From IMG/VR virus record IMGVR_UViG_2541047801_000004, positions 1-41,611 of that record: 41,611 bases of DNA, one strand, 5' to 3'. This document shows positions 5,538 through 40,166 of this stretch, in pieces. This DNA is from a virus (taxonomy: Duplodnaviria; Heunggongvirae; Uroviricota; Caudoviricetes). The position numbers and the translations under genes are program-made. A model generated the notes under the pieces. The model ran no database searches, had not been told where the DNA came from, and was given only the letters and a program-made list of their open reading frames with translations. How positions within the stretch are numbered: position 1 is the first letter of the stretch; each line of letters starts with the position of its first letter.

Positions 5538-8173
5538 TTATTTTGATTCCAATAGTTCGAGTCGCTCTTCAATACGATCGCATCGGCGGCGCTGATATGC
5601 AGCCTCAAGCCAAGCGCACTGGTCAGGCCGTATGCCCCATGAACTACCCGCTTTTTTAACCAGCCTCTGTTCTCCGGTGTCATATTCGACGGTGACCAAC
5701 TCACCAGACGCATCGGTAATCTCTTTAGTCGCGATTACCGGCTCAAAAATATCGTCCCACTCGTCATAGCAAAGAAGGCCAAATCTGGTTCCATCAATTC
5801 CGTGCGCCAGGAATACATCTCTTACCTGCTGAGCCATGACGCCAAAATGCCATCTGGCACCATCGCCCTTCATGGATATAGCGTCGAGCCATCGATACGC
5901 CACAACAGAAATATCGCCCCAGGCATCAAGAATGCTGTCTCTATCAGAAGAAAGCATTTCACTTAAATCTGATATTGCCTCGGGATTGGTTTTCAGCGTG
6001 GCATCTGATGAAACGGTTGGGGCATTTGCAAAGTAGGCGTCTTTAATACGAAACGATGCCTGACCAAAATTATAGGTATTGTCAGCAAACGGGCGAAGAC
6101 CTGTATTATAAAACCGCCAGCGTATGGTTCCTCCCAATGCTGTCGGGTCGCTGTTGCATGCAATATCCACCGTGGTGGCAGACCTAAACACAGAAGAACT
6201 ACCGCCCAATACCAAGCTATTTGCGCTAGCTGTAGCCTGCTGGTCAAGGACCAATATTTTCTGAGAGTTTGTAGTTGCACCGGCATATGATGATGCAGTG
6301 ATGCGGTTTAATTGGTTTGTATCAGGATCTGCGTTTTGCTGAATGGTTAAGTTAGATGCCCACTGTGCCGGTCGCTGGCGCACAAATACAAAGTCACCAG
6401 AAGGATTAGTTGCAACCAAATAACTAATGCCACTATCAGATGAATAATAGTTGACTATAAAAGTCTGATTATTCGCATTCAGTATTTCAACATATGTGCT
6501 GGAAGGGATTGCCACGCCAGATATATCAGCAATGCTGACAGTCCCTGTGTAAAAATTAAATGCCTTCTGACTCATCTCCTGCATATAGCGAAGAATTTCA
6601 GTCATGTTAGTGAACAACGTACCATCTACAGGGTTAACAATCCCCTTCGCACTACGGGGATATACCCCAATGCTCGCGTGATCGATATCAAATCCGCGGT
6701 AAAGCCTGGATGCAGGTGTAAAATCGATAGCATCTTTATCAGTGGAGAAATCTTCGAAAATAACCAAACCTGAATTGTAAGGTTCAGAGCCAGTTCTTTC
6801 CTGATGAATGTAAAGTGAATAAATGGATTTTCCATCCTGAGAAACACAAACGCCTTCATTTTCTATGCGAGTGACGTTCAATCCTGCGGCTTTCATTAAA
6901 TCCATCATGGCCTGAGGATGAAGCATTGATTCAGTTCGCTTTGTACCGTCAGGGTTAAAAACTTTGCTGCCCTGATATTCGTTATATCCTGCGCTTCCTG
7001 CCCCATCAGCTATGAAGCCGCCATAGCCGCAGACAAAGTAGTTATCACCTACCGCAATACCCTGACGCTTGTTGAAATAAGGCGCATAAGGTGAGGTGCT
7101 TTTAGTTACATACCCAACATCATGTAACGGCAGCGTTATAGTTGACAGGCGATTGAAACCACTGTCGAACACTGCAAGTACAGTTCTTGTGATTTTCTGT
7201 CCTACTTCTGGCGCATTCTGCTCAACGAGCCATATACCTCTTCTGTAGCTGAACTGGTTGAATAATCCAACATCATGGTTTTGTACAAGAGGCAGATTGC
7301 TTCCGTATAATGCCCCCTCCATATTAAATTCACGCAGTATTCCGTTTGTGTGACCAACAAACATTTTTTTTGGGCCATAGTCTGACGTAACCACGATTCC
7401 TTCAGCAGCGAAGCCTGGGCCGCCAGCCTGAACATAGAAATAACCTTGATAAATACCAGATATGTTAAATACTGCGACGACATTATTCGTCTGTTTAGGC
7501 TCAAATGGATAAGTGATGTATATCAAATCTTCGCTAACGCAGAATCCTTGAGGATACATATAAGTTGCTGACGGGTTAGCAGCCATAATCGCATCATATT
7601 CAGGAAAAAGAAGCGGCATCGTAGCTACAATCTTTCTTTGGTGATTTGTAAAAATATCGTTTTTAGCGCTGTTAGGTGTAGGCGTTACACCTCCAGTAAA
7701 AAGATCATCAACATAACCTTTATTGACAGCATCGTTTCTGTCAGTGGCATTTGCTAGATTTGATATCTTATTATTTTTTGCATCATAATAGTTAGCCAGA
7801 ATGCTTGGTTTTATAAGTGCTAACCTCATCCATGAAAAACACTTTTGAATAAGCATTGTCAGTTTATCGAACGCGTCTTCATGTACCTCAGCGAAGAACT
7901 TACCCTGATTACGCAAATCAGTATCCTGCGTAACCGGGAGCTCTCGTGATATAGAAATATGATAACCGTTAGCCAACGCCTTCGACAGAATTACATTACC
8001 GCCATTATATCCTCCAGCATTGGTTACTGTGTAGTCAGTATCCAGAACCAATTCTGTTACGTTCCCGTTCAGGTCAGACACCTGAACAACCAGGTCCGGA
8101 AGGTATACGGAAATGATGTCGTAGCTCCGTTACCAGTGTATTCGTTGTGGTCAACTTCGGTTGAGACCGTCAT
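5538..8173 (-). CDS. tailspike/tail fibre protein with C-terminal intramolecular-chaperone (peptidase S74-like) domain; 5' end frameshifted (possible pseudogene or assembly error)
   Basis: ATG 8173 with GGAG RBS encodes MTVSTEVDHNEYTGNGATTSFPYTF, then hits TGA at 8069-8071; the 847-aa body (DLVVQVSDLNGNVTEL...) is in another frame open from 8129; the frames meet at 8097-8099. Confidence 0.7.
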
Positions 8174-10475: not shown

Positions 10476-10500
10476 TAAAACAAGGCCGCTTTTGCGGCCT
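10476..10500 (-). terminator. rho-independent terminator after the lipoprotein gene (end of the upstream late transcript)
   Basis: Stem AGGCCGC/GCGGCCT with 4-nt loop, followed on the minus strand by TGTTTTAA. Confidence 0.5.
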
Positions 10501-10515: not shown

Positions 10516-10929
10516 TTATAAAGATGACTGATATTTTACAACTCTGTTCATGGCATCTTTTTTCACCGAGCTGATATCAGTTCTTATTTTGGCTTCGTCA
10601 TTACTGTTTATCATGCTATTAACTTTTTGCACTGACATGCCGTTTCTTTCAGCCATTGCACATACAGCAGCATCGTATGAAGAACTCGCTGCGATGGATA
10701 TCACCTTGTTACACTCAAACACAGCACCTTCAGCAATATCAGATGCCGATGATGCTGGCTTGGTATAAGTCTTGACGTAGTGATCAATACAACTATCCTT
10801 CGCCGTCTTGGCAAGAGAAAAATCCATTTTAACTTTGTCGCAATATGCCTTATCAACACCGTCATAAACATCATAGGATGTCGAGCAAGCGGATATCAAA
10901 AATACCGATAACAGCAATAATTCCTTCAT
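10516..10929 (-). CDS. prophage lipoprotein (possible exclusion/moron function)
   Basis: Signal peptide with lipobox LISAC; 137 aa; sits between ejection-protein genes and the ant module. Confidence 0.6.
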   Translation of the reverse strand: MKELLLLSVFLISACSTSYDVYDGVDKAYCDKVKMDFSLAKTAKDSCIDHYVKTYTKPASSASDIAEGAVFECNKVISIAASSSYDAAVCAMAERNGMSVQKVNSMINSNDEAKIRTDISSVKKDAMNRVVKYQSSL

Positions 10930-21218: not shown

Positions 21219-21826
21219 CAGGACAACCTCGCAATGGTAAACTCGTCAACCGGTGGCTGTGGTTCCTGTGATTCATTCTGGCTATGCGAGCCAGCACTAA
21301 GAATCACGCGATTGTACATATTGAGGGCAAACGTACCGAGGTCTGCATTCCCAGTCAGCGCCATGTTAATAGCTGCCGCAAGACGCCAGGCCAACGCCTC
21401 CATAAAAATGGCATCAAACATGTTCACATCTGTAACGCGAGAGACATACTTGAGCCATGCCTGAGGCTGGTCTGTGTAGATCAACTTTCCTGTTCCGTTG
21501 GTGTCTGCACCAACTTCGTACTGAACGCGCATTGATGCTGTTGGATTGCGTACACCAGGAAGCATAATTTCAGTAATGCGCAGACAATCTGACGGGTACT
21601 GGTACGCATATTCCCAGTCAGGCGGTGGATTGCTCGTATCTGCAAGCGCCACGCGTTTGGTAGCAAAGTTCCAGTCAAAATCAGAAAGCACAGCATCACG
21701 GCAGGCCTCAAAGTGCAGCGAACATTCCCCCGCTTCCTTGCTGGCTTCCGTCAGGCTGTTAATGCTGCGGCTGTTGCCAATATTGGACAGCGCACGATTA
21801 CAGATCTCTACTACAGAGGCCATCAC
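21218..21826 (-). CDS. tail tubular protein A-like / adaptor (T7 gp11-like)
   Basis: 202 aa; N-terminal pattern resembling gp11-type proteins; gene order. Confidence 0.5.
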   Translation of the reverse strand: MMASVVEICNRALSNIGNSRSINSLTEASKEAGECSLHFEACRDAVLSDFDWNFATKRVALADTSNPPPDWEYAYQYPSDCLRITEIMLPGVRNPTASMRVQYEVGADTNGTGKLIYTDQPQAWLKYVSRVTDVNMFDAIFMEALAWRLAAAINMALTGNADLGTFALNMYNRVILSAGSHSQNESQEPQPPVDEFTIARLS

Positions 21827-22146
21827 TCACCTCCGTTACCGTACAGAGTTTCAGCCGCTGATTTTTCTACATCCCCGGAAACAGGAGCGATCGCCATATC
21901 AGTGATCTGCAGATCGGCGCTGCGATTAACGCCATCGTCAGTTTCTCTGGCAGACAGGCCTCGAATAACAGCCTTTGCAGTTATCATCACTTCCGTTCCG
22001 ACGCCCTGAGGTTGCGCCTTCAGCTTATTCAATGTGTCGTTATTAAGAGTGATGCACAGCCCCCACGGGTATTCATCGCGAGTTCTGGTTTCTCCGCTCT
22101 CATCCTGGTAGCTGTCAGTGCCGGTTTTGAGGTTTACGAGTTCCAT
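21823..22146 (-). CDS. hypothetical structural protein
   Basis: ATG 22146 with AGGAG RBS; about 107 aa. Confidence 0.5.
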   Translation of the reverse strand: MELVNLKTGTDSYQDESGETRTRDEYPWGLCITLNNDTLNKLKAQPQGVGTEVMITAKAVIRGLSARETDDGVNRSADLQITDMAIAPVSGDVEKSAAETLYGNGGE

Positions 22147-22158
22147 ATACACTCCTGC

Positions 22159-22178
22159 AATAAAGGGGCCGAAGCCCC
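22159..22178 (-). terminator. intra-operon hairpin (GGGGC-CGAA-GCCCC) followed by TTTATT, possible partial terminator
   Basis: 5-bp GC stem plus T-rich tract on the minus strand just before the RBS of the 22146 gene. Confidence 0.35.
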
Positions 22179-22196
22179 TTGTCTGATTCGCGAGGC

Positions 22197-22541
22197 TTAC
22201 ACGCCCAGTTCTTTACGCTTATCTGCGATCTTCTCGCGGAGCGTTTCGGCTTTGGCGTTATGGTGTGGCTTCTCGTTAAAGAGCAATTCGTACTCTTCAC
22301 GGAGCTTATCCAGTTCACCATCATCTGACACATCGTTGATGATTTTGGTGCTGGTTGCTGCCATTGACACCTTTCCTGCAACTTTTGCTTTTGCCTGTCT
22401 GGCTGCATCGTTAACAGGTTCCAGTGCGCTACCAGGCTCACCTTCGTATTCGATTTCTGCCCCCTCCGGCCACAGAGTGTTATGGATATGAGAGAGGCGC
22501 AGAACGCGGTATCTTGGTTTCTCACCTGACATCGATATCAC
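22197..22541 (-). CDS. hypothetical protein
   Basis: 114-aa ORF in the capsid-proximal gene block. Confidence 0.5.
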   Translation of the reverse strand: MISMSGEKPRYRVLRLSHIHNTLWPEGAEIEYEGEPGSALEPVNDAARQAKAKVAGKVSMAATSTKIINDVSDDGELDKLREEYELLFNEKPHHNAKAETLREKIADKRKELGV

Positions 22542-22542
22542 C

Positions 22543-22980
22543 TTAACCAGTTACTTTTGAGCGGATCGGATACGGCGTATTGGCATCAACATCAAGACTG
22601 ATACCAGCAGTGAATTCGCCAGCCGTTAGTGGACCAGTTGCGACGGAGTAGTTAACACGCAGATATCGCTGAACACCGGCAGGCACCTTTGCAGAAACAA
22701 CTCGTTTACCTGCTGTCAGGGCGGTCTTTGCCAGTGCGCCACTATCATAAATAGTGGTCCATGAGCTGTTATTCTCACTCGTCTGCAACTGGATGTTTAC
22801 AGTTGCATCACCGCTTGCCGCGGCGGCTGTGTTAACCAGCGCCCAAAACTCAAGCGGGTAACCAACGCCGATATCACGACGTTTTCCGTCAATTGGACCG
22901 AGATCGATTACGTCAGTAGAAGCCGCGGTATTCGTAACCGCCTGAGCTTCGGAGAACATCAACAGTTTGTCGGTGATCAT
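22543..22980 (-). CDS. putative capsid decoration/accessory protein
   Basis: 145-aa ORF immediately downstream of the major capsid gene. Confidence 0.45.
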   Translation of the reverse strand: MITDKLLMFSEAQAVTNTAASTDVIDLGPIDGKRRDIGVGYPLEFWALVNTAAAASGDATVNIQLQTSENNSSWTTIYDSGALAKTALTAGKRVVSAKVPAGVQRYLRVNYSVATGPLTAGEFTAGISLDVDANTPYPIRSKVTG

Positions 22981-23031
22981 CTTCTTTCTCCATTAGTGGG
23001 TCTGTTACGACCCACAGGTTAATAACAGGCG

Positions 23032-24024
23032 TTACACCACGCGGGCTTCTGTTTCCAGAAGCGCATCAGTTTCACGGATTGGTACACCACGGAATGAAGT
23101 CCACCACTCGCCTTCTGTCTCTTTTACGCTGATCGCCAGAGATGTTTTCTCCAGAGATTGCAGATCAAGAGCCTGGCCTACAGTGCGGTTCATGTAGAAC
23201 ACCGGGCGACCCATGCCACGATTTGGAATGCGATGCAGTGCTTTAACCATCAACTTCGCAATATTTGCGGCAGAGGAAGGTTCTGAAAGATTGCTGACAT
23301 CGATGTTTGCAATGCGAACAACATAACGCCAGTCACGCAGAGCAAGTCCGTTGTCCCATTTGTAATGGGTACGGTAGCCTTCGTACTTGCCGCCATTCGC
23401 ATCTTCCAGTGTCACCTGGCCTTTATCTTCCATCTGGATACCAGCCTTCTGCCCTTTCGGGAAGATGCCATGCACGGTGTTTTCGCCCCACACCACTAAC
23501 CAGATTGAGGTGTTATCTGTACCCGTGCCACCAGCATCAATGATGTTCTGAGCATTACCCGCAGACAGGCTGGAATAGCGGGAGGACAGTCCCATAAACT
23601 GCTGAGGGTTAACGCTGGAATCACCATAAAACAGTGTCTGCGCCATCTGCTGATTCATCGCTTCAATAAATGCGCGGTCTTCAGACAGGCGGAATTCGGC
23701 GGTATTACCGTTCAGATCAGCCAGTGACTTATCGACTTCAGCATAGGTTTCCAGCATGCCAACGGAATCGGTTACCTGCACTGTGGTTGATTTGCTTGGC
23801 TGTACGCCATAGTTCAGCAAACGCCAGGTAGCTGAAGGTAAACCAGAACGAATGGTGGTTCGGTGTCCGGTAGGAAGGTTCCCTTCGACAAAAGGCATAT
23901 CCTGAAGGATCGGGTTTGTTTGACCGAGAAGCTCGATAATCTTATCGACTTTCCCGTTTGGATCGACGCGCTTACCCCAGTCAGCCAGCGTTAGCGCAGT
24001 TAAGCCTTTAACAGCCATTGTCAT
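23032..24024 (-). CDS. major capsid protein
   Basis: 330-aa ORF after the scaffold-like gene. Confidence 0.7.
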   Translation of the reverse strand: MTMAVKGLTALTLADWGKRVDPNGKVDKIIELLGQTNPILQDMPFVEGNLPTGHRTTIRSGLPSATWRLLNYGVQPSKSTTVQVTDSVGMLETYAEVDKSLADLNGNTAEFRLSEDRAFIEAMNQQMAQTLFYGDSSVNPQQFMGLSSRYSSLSAGNAQNIIDAGGTGTDNTSIWLVVWGENTVHGIFPKGQKAGIQMEDKGQVTLEDANGGKYEGYRTHYKWDNGLALRDWRYVVRIANIDVSNLSEPSSAANIAKLMVKALHRIPNRGMGRPVFYMNRTVGQALDLQSLEKTSLAISVKETEGEWWTSFRGVPIRETDALLETEARVV

Positions 24025-27351: not shown

Positions 27352-27428
27352 GTGGCATTAGCTCAGTTGGACAGAGCAACCGCCTTCTAAGCGGTTGGTC
27401 GCAGGTTCGAATCCTGCATGCCACGCCA
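27352..27428 (+). tRNA. tRNA-Arg (anticodon TCT, reads AGA)
   Basis: 77 nt; acceptor stem GTGGCAT/ATGCCAC, D-stem GCTC/GAGC, anticodon stem ACCGC/GCGGT with loop CTTCTAA, T-arm GCAGG-TTCGAAT-CCTGC, discriminator G, encoded CCA. Confidence 0.9.
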
Positions 27429-27471: not shown

Positions 27472-27513
27472 GGCGGTGATAGTTTCCCTTGAAGGACTAT
27501 CACCGCCCTTTTT
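27472..27513 (+). terminator. hairpin terminator after the tRNA
   Basis: 12-bp perfect stem GGCGGTGATAGT/ACTATCACCGCC followed by CTTTTTA. Confidence 0.55.
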
Positions 27514-27591: not shown

Positions 27592-27615
27592 GCCCGGTTC
27601 GCCGGGCATTTTTTT
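27592..27615 (+). terminator. rho-independent terminator immediately upstream of the moron RBS
   Basis: Stem GCCCGG/CCGGGC with TTCG tetraloop, then ATTTTTTT; RBS AAGGTGAG and ATG at 27627 follow directly. Confidence 0.6.
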
Positions 27616-30249: not shown

Positions 30250-30275
30250 AAATAAAGCCGCCATAGTTGGCGGCA
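30250..30275 (-). terminator. rho-independent terminator separating early-right genes from the late operon
   Basis: On the minus strand, stem GCCGCC/GGCGGC with loop AACTAT, followed by TTTATTTT. Confidence 0.5.
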
Positions 30276-30315: not shown

Positions 30316-30327
30316 GTGACATGTCAC
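30316..30327. repeat. 12-bp perfect palindrome GTGACATGTCAC (copy 3 of 3)
   Basis: Exact palindrome overlapping the stop codon of the 30324-30671 gene. Confidence 0.8.
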
Positions 30328-30671
30328 ACTATTAATTTAGTTTCATGCCAGCCTTTAGTCACCCAGCATTGCGAGTCACCATTACACGGGCATGAATTAA
30401 CGGGAACTTTCTCGCCGCACTTACCGCAACGTTTTCTGCTAATCGATTTTATACGCCCGCGCACGCGTGCATCATCCTGGCGGATCAGTAACGCTATATA
30501 CTCCCCAAATTCGTAAGGCGCACGCCCGGGGCGACGCGTGGCACAGTTACGCTCCAGCATTTCCTGCTCCTGCTTATCCAGCACCAGTTCAATTTTGCGC
30601 TCACCGGCGGCGGACTGCCGAGCGCGCTGCGCGGCTTTGCGTTCTGCGGGGGATTTAGCCACGAATCGCAC
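30324..30671 (-). CDS. hypothetical Cys-rich protein (possible regulator)
   Basis: GTG start; C-terminal CGKCG...CPCNG cysteine cluster; last gene before the late operon. Confidence 0.45.
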   Translation of the reverse strand: MRFVAKSPAERKAAQRARQSAAGERKIELVLDKQEQEMLERNCATRRPGRAPYEFGEYIALLIRQDDARVRGRIKSISRKRCGKCGEKVPVNSCPCNGDSQCWVTKGWHETKLIV

Positions 30672-39523: not shown

Positions 39524-40166
39524 GAAATACACACTAATCTATGCAGATCCACCCTGGGTATACCGGGACAAAGCCGCAGATGGTAATCGCGGTGCCGGTT
39601 TTAAATATCCGGTTATGAGTGTGCTGGATATCTGCCGCCTTCCTGTGTGGGATTTGGCCGATGAAAACTGTCTGTTGGCCATGTGGTGGGTGCCAACACA
39701 ACCACTCGAAGCACTAAAAGTTGTTGAAGCCTGGGGATTTCGTCTGATGACGATGAAGGGCTTCACGTGGATAAAATGTGGTAGTCGACAACCAGATAAA
39801 CTGGTTATGGGTATGGGACACATGACTCGCGCCAATAGTGAAGATTGCCTGTTTGCAGTAAAGGGAAAACTACCTCCACGCATTAATGCAGGGATCGTTC
39901 AGTCATTTACCGCACCGCGGCTTGAGCATTCAAGAAAACCAGATGTCGTTCGTGAAAAACTTGTGCAATTGTTAGGCGATGTTTCTCGCATTGAACTGTT
40001 CGCCCGCCAGTCGTCTCATGGCTTCGATGTTTGGGGTAATCAGTGCGAAGACCCGGCAGTGCAACTACACCCTGGATACGTGTTGGATATTGCCAGATTA
40101 ACAAATGCATTCAGCAATGCTCCGCTGTCACCAACAGACAACCAGGGACGGGAGCGTGCAGCATGA
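39516..40166 (+). CDS. MT-A70-family DNA N6-adenine methyltransferase (orphan)
   Basis: IYADPPW motif near the N-terminus; about 216 aa; no adjacent restriction gene. Confidence 0.7.
   Translation: MTKKYTLIYADPPWVYRDKAADGNRGAGFKYPVMSVLDICRLPVWDLADENCLLAMWWVPTQPLEALKVVEAWGFRLMTMKGFTWIKCGSRQPDKLVMGMGHMTRANSEDCLFAVKGKLPPRINAGIVQSFTAPRLEHSRKPDVVREKLVQLLGDVSRIELFARQSSHGFDVWGNQCEDPAVQLHPGYVLDIARLTNAFSNAPLSPTDNQGRERAA

Follow-up and report, generated by a model that had tools for sequence, protein, structure and literature searches.

The window, that is, the whole stretch of 41,611 nucleotides analysed here, is an E. coli prophage of the Uetakevirus type (epsilon15/phiV10-like), and the phage is temperate, with both a repressor and an integrase. 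Its capsid block is 100% identical to prophages of several complete E. coli genomes and 99% identical to phages HEMP4, TL-2011b, and phiV10, and copies related to this block were found in 535 of 5426 complete genomes. The late operon occupies ~16.4 kb of the minus strand, from about 26.9 kb to a stop codon at 10516. On the sense strand it runs through portal, a small ORF, a scaffold/protease-like protein, the major capsid protein, a Bbp16-like cement protein, and a gp9-like ORF up to the hairpin considered in this study, and past the hairpin through a Gp10-like capsid staple, tail tubular proteins A and B, and then internal virion proteins. Most junctions in the operon overlap or have short gaps, and the capsid block holds only two gaps of ~50 nt. 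One follows the major capsid gene; the other separates the gp9-like and gp10-like genes (the gp9-gp10 junction) and contains the hairpin. The features of this junction are as follows in sense-strand order, the short elements having been read from the sequence and the spacer also from alignments.

22197-22532, minus strand: gp9-like gene, function not assigned (ORF list, phrog_590, PGAP CDS)
22199-22197, minus strand: stop codon UAA of the gp9-like gene
22196-22181, minus strand: 16-nt spacer from the gp9-like stop codon to the hairpin
22180-22174, minus strand: 5' arm of the hairpin, AAGGGGC
22173-22170, minus strand: loop of the hairpin, a UUCG tetraloop
22169-22163, minus strand: 3' arm of the hairpin, GCCCCUU
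22164-22157, minus strand: U-rich tail, UUUAUUGC
22156-22152, minus strand: Shine-Dalgarno (SD) sequence AGGAG of the gp10-like gene
21823-22146, minus strand: gene for a Gp10-like capsid staple/decoration protein of 107 aa (Pfam PF21628, E 1.1e-51)

The gp9-like gene starts at 22532 according to PGAP and at 22541 as the longest ORF, and the phiV10 record notes the similarity of its product to epsilon15 gp9. The gene downstream of the hairpin is named 'gp10 capsid staple protein' by PGAP; its product is 43% identical to epsilon15 gp10, and its stop codon and the start of the gene for tail tubular protein A overlap. In epsilon15, the copy number of gp10 is presumably about equal to that of the major capsid protein, and gp10 decorates the capsid. 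It does so as dimers at the 2-fold positions (PMC7602432). The first-pass annotation had placed the site at the border of the capsid genes with the tail genes, which does not hold, since the gene starting at 22146 encodes a Gp10-like capsid staple and the tail tubular A and B genes come after it.

Compared ungapped over the full 41.6 kb with E. coli SCU-101 (NZ_CP048920.1, 1555309-1596919), the window shows 21,763 mismatches despite the 100%-identical capsid block, implying that at least one indel or mosaic segment elsewhere sets the two prophages apart. In addition, the region that separates the terminase genes from the portal operon contains a prophage-borne tRNA-Arg gene (anticodon TCT; 27352-27428, plus strand), oriented antisense to the late genes and followed by two terminator-like hairpins (27472-27507 and 27592-27607, plus strand), one of which has a 14-bp stem.

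Read on the minus strand, which is the sense strand of the late genes, the hairpin of the gp9-gp10 junction is AAGGGGC-UUCG-GCCCCUU (22163-22180), with a 7-bp stem. A hairpin with a tail before the RBS of the 22146 gene, as had been proposed, is present at the expected coordinates once the minus strand is read; the span originally given (22159-22178) comprises the five G-C pairs and the tail, and the stem, which has two A-U pairs in addition, was rightly described as short. Five of the eight tail positions are U, three of them contiguous, and the first two U double as the last two bases of the stem. The AGGAG motif starts 6 nt past the last stem base and is followed by a 5-nt spacer and then the ATG at 22146; in the Tyrion record, an RBS is annotated at the position equivalent to 22152-22156. 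On the opposite strand the hairpin is followed by a poor tail (GUCUGAUU), and it is terminator-like on the minus strand only. The 5' spacer (22181-22196) begins with GCCUCGC at 22196-22190, after which an A-rich run adjoins the stem. This GCCUCGC, located right after the gp9-like stop codon, is non-coding yet kept in nearly all phiV10-type relatives, and alignment folding revealed no conserved pairing partner for it.

Folded in isolation, the 28-nt segment reaches -12.7 kcal/mol versus -6.35 +/- 2.14 for its shuffles (z -2.97), and 2 of 200 shuffles fold as stably. The 86-nt context of the hairpin is not unusually structured (z -0.63), and the minus strand of the window contains 43 hairpins at <= -10 kcal/mol, so that stability alone is not remarkable. 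These figures, together with the occurrence of hairpins of similar energy about once per 1-2 kb in the window, are what would favour a chance hairpin without function. When only hairpins at <= -12 kcal/mol are counted, there are about 22 per 41.6 kb of the minus strand, and from this strand-wide count the chance of such a hairpin in a given 50-nt gap is roughly 0.02. The motif is unique in the window even at 3 mismatches, which rules out a REP-like repeated element. Likewise, a known RNA family was ruled out by an Rfam covariance-model search of 21500-23500 on both strands, which returned 0 matches at E <= 10.

A consensus terminator scan of the window gave no excess of sites and did not list the gp9-gp10 hairpin. 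Sites were also ranked by a combined score d (hairpin energy per nucleotide plus a weighted U-tail term), which follows a d'Aubenton-Carafa-type formula and serves for relative ranking only. On the minus strand, 6 sites had a positive d versus 0.2 +/- 0.5 in 20 dinucleotide shuffles. The gp9-gp10 hairpin (d = +7.4) ranks lowest of these six and is the only one inside the ~16.4-kb late operon, and its value is not far below the 12.4 obtained for the hairpin at the end of the operon, which lies 16 nt past the last late-gene stop codon (10516) and folds at -14.4 kcal/mol (z -4.0).

10484-10499, minus strand: terminal terminator-like hairpin of the late operon, GGCCGC-AAAA-GCGGCC followed by UUGUUUUAACG

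The gp9-gp10 junction was compared in phiV10, Tyrion, Klebsiella phage ST11-OXA245phi3.2, Salmonella 65FD, BUCT554, epsilon15, and SPN1S, plus 11 prophages from a Gp10 profile search (Scandinavium, Kluyvera, Pseudocitrobacter, Buttiauxella, Erwinia, Superficieibacter, Pseudescherichia, Pseudomonas, Pantoea, and Citrobacter). All 16 distinct junctions, from Escherichia to Pseudomonas, show a GC hairpin with a U/C-rich tail ahead of the gp10 RBS, in phages and prophages whose gp10 identity ranges from 43 to 100%. The tails are UUUAUUGC, UUUUUUGC, UUUCUUGC, UUUCUUUUC, or, in epsilon15, GCUUUUCUAUGC. The loops vary (UUCG, GGAU, AUUC, and UUUC) around a nearly invariant GGGGC/GCCCC core with one G-U wobble in Buttiauxella, and outer stem pairs are altered or gained (GGGGGC/GCCCCC, GGGGCC/GGCCCC); epsilon15 and Citrobacter have a long AAAAGC...GCUUUU helix extension, and the Pantoea stem (GGGGCC/GGCCCC) bridges the two stem types. 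Every relative has an A-rich 5' flank, and an (A)GGAG or GGAG SD is kept in all of them at a constant spacing from the tail. RNAalifold analysis of 14 aligned relatives yielded a simple hairpin only as the consensus, with true compensatory covariation limited to the outer pairs, there being little of it because the stem core does not vary. As a population check, 80 near-identical IMG/VR copies were examined: the gap has five variable positions, four of them in the 5' spacer (22181, 22184, 22185, and 22188) and the fifth a loop singleton at 22170, and none in the stem, tail, or SD.

A chance origin is hard to reconcile with these observations, considering that different genera keep the hairpin at one and the same junction even though the identity of the flanking proteins drops to 43-50%, that its loop varies and pairs are added to its stem, and that the 80 close copies show 0 substitutions in stem, tail, or SD; the local z-score points in the same direction. 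As far as sequence comparison can tell, conservation at the gp9-gp10 junction in every relative examined is the decisive evidence here, so that the chance reading, which we hold to be barely credible, is effectively refuted. The hairpin is almost certainly functional.

Several other explanations of the junction were dropped. An outer helix hiding the gp10 start (translational coupling) is seen in the single-sequence MFE structure, in which the gp9 stop region (GCCUCGCGA) pairs with the gp10 SD and AUG, but RNAalifold on the 14 relatives retains the simple hairpin alone. A mosaic or recombination joint at the hairpin was abandoned as well, since binned identity stays at 93-100% from one side of the gap to the other and shows no step there; the ungapped count of 140 variable sites out of 346 in gp9 is high because many low-frequency differences are pooled. 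The third explanation, that the hairpin is tied to the gp10-like gene itself, was dropped on the gaps of distant podoviruses. The Gp10-like gene follows portal directly in BPP-1, BcepC6B, and Limnohabitans DC33, and in an uncultured podovirus (MW202640) one small ORF lies between the portal region and this gene. The gap before it measures 11-17 nt in BPP-1, Limnohabitans DC33, and the uncultured podovirus, and 58 nt in BcepC6B, where an unrelated stem without a U tail was found. On these gaps, the hairpin goes with the Uetakevirus gene order and not with gp10 itself. In all four of these genomes, the Gp10-like gene occupies the gp5 position of epsilon15-type phages, and its location just after portal implies that the staple gene has moved within the head module during evolution. 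Limnohabitans phage DC33 (PQ492659.1), in which the Gp10-like gene comes after a large hypothetical ORF in the portal position, carries Inoviridae in its taxonomy line yet has a 39-kb circular genome, and the taxonomy deposited with it is probably in error.

The other ~50-nt gap of the capsid block (51 nt, 22981-23031), which separates the major capsid gene from the Bbp16-like cement gene, also contains a hairpin, again just before an RBS.

22996-23015, minus strand: post-capsid hairpin, GUGGGUC-GUAACA-GACCCAC, without a U tail (-13.6 kcal/mol, z -3.25)

The partial terminator of T7-like phages, to which the site had initially been compared, lies after the capsid gene, and in the window it is this tail-less hairpin that is truly found there. 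It resembles the gp9-gp10 hairpin in being a conserved GC hairpin in a ~50-nt gap before an RBS, and it is the more widely conserved of the two. It is also present in Tyrion, 65FD, and Klebsiella phage ST11-OXA245phi3.2, with compensatory changes (GUGGGUC/GACCCAC, GUGGGCC/GGCCCAU, and GCGGCCCG/CGGGCUGC), and the GC stems that BPP-1 and BcepC6B have at this position are unrelated to it; epsilon15 is without it and has a gap of 12 nt there. None of the relatives that have the post-capsid hairpin shows a U tail on it, implying that U-richness is specific to the gp9-gp10 site and is not a general property of the region upstream of an RBS. The post-capsid hairpin probably acts as a barrier to 3' decay of the mRNA and not as a terminator.

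A purely post-transcriptional role, as a decay barrier or a processing landmark in the late mRNA with no meaningful termination, may also be considered for the gp9-gp10 hairpin. Either 3'-to-5' exonucleases would be blocked after a downstream endonuclease cut, which would stabilise the capsid-gp9 segment, or RNase E would cut in the A-rich spacer and the hairpin would then cap the 5' end of the processed gp10-tail mRNA; comparable intercistronic hairpins are known from malE-malF (REP), puf, and papBA. Such a role would be in keeping with the high stability of the hairpin for its size, with its C(UUCG)G tetraloop, with the A-rich single-stranded spacer just 5' of the stem, and with the neighbouring post-capsid gap, whose conserved and covarying hairpin without a U tail indicates that these phages do use non-terminator intercistronic hairpins. 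However, a decay barrier needs no U/C-rich tail, and such a tail accompanies the gp9-gp10 hairpin in 16 of 16 relatives and never the post-capsid one, which is the strongest argument for termination over a pure decay barrier; the epsilon15 version, moreover, has a classical terminator shape (A-tract, hairpin, and UUUUCU). We therefore regard a purely post-transcriptional role as possible but rather unlikely. A broader proposal seems very unlikely to us, namely that both hairpins form one post-transcriptional system dividing the mRNA into segments of set stability and translation rate and thereby fixing the capsid : cement : staple ratio, or that the near-invariant GGGGC-UUCG-GCCCC core is the site of a phage or host RNA-binding factor and not a passive terminator.

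A promoter scan gave nothing useful near the gp9-gp10 hairpin, and since the hairpin ends 6 nt before the SD, no promoter fits between them. The gp10 gene and the tail and injection genes, having no room for a promoter of their own, thus depend on read-through, so that the site must be leaky or overridden. Because gp10 and essential tail genes rely on read-through, termination here cannot be efficient, and the high read-through required also fits a non-terminating, post-transcriptional hairpin. In the near-identical E. coli SCU-101 prophage, none of the 60 features annotated across the matching region is an RNA polymerase gene, suggesting that host RNA polymerase would be the enzyme terminated.

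Our favoured reading, to which we give a probability of about 0.55, is that the hairpin may be a leaky, partial intrinsic terminator for host RNA polymerase that would also stabilise the 3' end of the mRNA. It lies in sense orientation, 16 nt past the gp9-like stop codon and within a transcription unit, as expected for an intrinsic terminator, and with its GC hairpin, flanked by an A-rich run on the 5' side and by a U-rich tail on the other, it looks like a weak element of this kind within a long late operon. Transcription would come from upstream of the portal gene along the minus strand, and the nascent GGGGC-UUCG-GCCCC hairpin would form at the time when the polymerase holds the weak rU:dA hybrid of the UUUAUU tract, so that a fraction of the elongation complexes might be released at this tract. 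The predicted product is an abundant portal-scaffold-capsid-gp8-gp9 transcript with a very stable tetraloop hairpin as its 3' cap, and this hairpin would be expected to shield it from 3' exonucleases as well. Polymerases reading through would make the mRNA for gp10 and the tail and injection genes, and the strong AGGAG just past the tail would be expected to compensate in translation for the high-copy need of gp10. The terminator and decay-barrier roles are not mutually exclusive and can coexist. Against a terminator it can be said that the U tract is short and interrupted, that the stem has only five G-C pairs, that the score is borderline, and that the site precedes the high-copy capsid gene gp10. 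Considering that gp10 is a capsid protein gene, a stoichiometric attenuator would fit better one gene downstream.

It has also to be asked whether the element serves gp10 translation, the hairpin insulating the RBS from structure upstream of it and the U-rich tract acting as an S1-binding enhancer, so that staple output would go up and not down. Both ~50-nt gaps precede capsid accessory genes (Bbp16-like cement and Gp10-like staple), and the tail abuts a strong AGGAG at constant spacing in all relatives, as this would predict. On the other hand, the hairpin of the post-capsid gap is not accompanied by a U-rich tract ahead of the RBS, and RNAalifold on 14 relatives gave no conserved pairing of the flanks with the SD or AUG; we consider such a role improbable.

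A further possibility concerns insulation in the lysogen, where a real terminator would stop stray transcription by unmodified polymerase into gp10 and the tail genes, and in lytic growth a phage factor would render polymerase termination-resistant, so that read-through of the site would be almost complete. It takes its appeal from a regulator gene with a strong terminator-like hairpin just before the terminase genes and from a terminator annotated at the equivalent place in epsilon15.

30257-30274, minus strand: terminator-like hairpin GCCGCC-AACUAU-GGCGGC followed by UUUAUUUUGC (d = 21)

This hairpin lies between a regulator-like ORF (30324-30671; phrog_536, 'transcriptional regulator') and the terminase small subunit gene, and epsilon15 has a terminator annotated at the equivalent place (39646..39672). 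The arrangement is reminiscent of the lambdoid Q-tR' region, to which it is likened by layout only (regulator gene, strong terminator, then packaging/late genes). However, the regulator matches only a generic 'transcriptional regulator' PHROG, with no Pfam or NCBIfam match, and nothing marks it as an antiterminator. Moreover, the epsilon15 record puts repressor operators directly before each late transcription unit, which suggests direct promoter control. Insulation in the lysogen is accordingly very unlikely in our judgement.

If confirmed, leaky termination at the gp9-gp10 junction would document the way in which a temperate podovirus relying on host RNA polymerase reduces the transcription of low-copy tail and injection genes relative to head genes, and it would justify annotating the stem-loop feature of epsilon15 in phiV10-type phages as well, and in the hundreds of E. 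coli prophages sharing it. In phiV10-based reporter phages, both ~50-nt hairpin gaps are places where insertions could disturb the late-gene balance; the insert of the phiV10 NanoLuc phage is at recET and not at the gp9-gp10 junction. Anyhow, the gp9-gp10 hairpin is an ordinary intercistronic element, on which very little hinges and which opens no new question.

Leaky terminators balance phage gene expression, a strategy for which T7 is cited, and in LUZ7 more than 60% of the mapped phage termination sites have an efficiency below 50% (PMC9163698). In epsilon15 (RefSeq NC_004775.2), the gp9-gp10 gap bears a stem_loop feature described as 'rho-independent terminator; transcriptional termination' (7664..7686, plus strand, with a minus-strand partner at 7647..7681), which is an in-silico prediction and the only internal terminator annotated in the gp3-gp18 operon; the phiV10-type records do not carry it. 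A literature search on epsilon15, phiV10, and Uetakevirus terminators or transcripts found no mapping of transcript 3' ends. The two phages are of one genus-level type, the flanking genes (gp9-like and Gp10-like) and the place in the operon are the same in epsilon15 and in the window, the gene order is alike (portal-gp5-gp6-capsid-gp8-gp9-hairpin-gp10-gp11-gp12), and both share the G4C/GC4 stem core, a U-rich tail, and then the gp10 RBS. The hairpin of the window is thus the positional counterpart of the epsilon15 terminator, and the matching site of the type phage is already annotated. The epsilon15 hairpin is longer (AAAAGC-CGGGGCC-AUUC-GGCCCCG-GCUUUU, about -20 kcal/mol versus -12.7 kcal/mol in the window), has a better tail (UUUUCU), and is annotated as bidirectional, whereas the version in the window is minimal and terminator-like on one strand only.

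The T7 terminator T-phi acts on the single-subunit RNA polymerase of the phage, directly after the major capsid gene. The site in the window resembles it in combining a hairpin with a U run, here short and interrupted, in a late structural operon, in its predicted leakiness with downstream genes still expressed, and in lying upstream of T7-gp11/gp12-like tail tubular genes (phrog_394 and phrog_376). It differs in lying two genes past the capsid gene, with the Bbp16-like and gp9-like genes between, and in being followed by another capsid gene (gp10). The analogy with T7 drawn in the first-pass annotation therefore stands as a functional likeness, but not as regards the polymerase, since no phage RNA polymerase is annotated in the SCU-101 prophage, nor as regards a position directly after the capsid gene.

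Intercistronic elements of bacteria, such as the rplL-rpoB attenuator, the papB-papA/papA terminator hairpin, the malE-malF REP, and the puf hairpins, split the mRNA so that its upstream part is more abundant than its downstream part, via partial termination and/or differential decay. These attenuators and stabilising hairpins have measured effects on transcript levels, whereas those of the site in the window are predicted, and unlike in the bacterial cases, the downstream part at this site starts with the gene of a high-copy protein, gp10.
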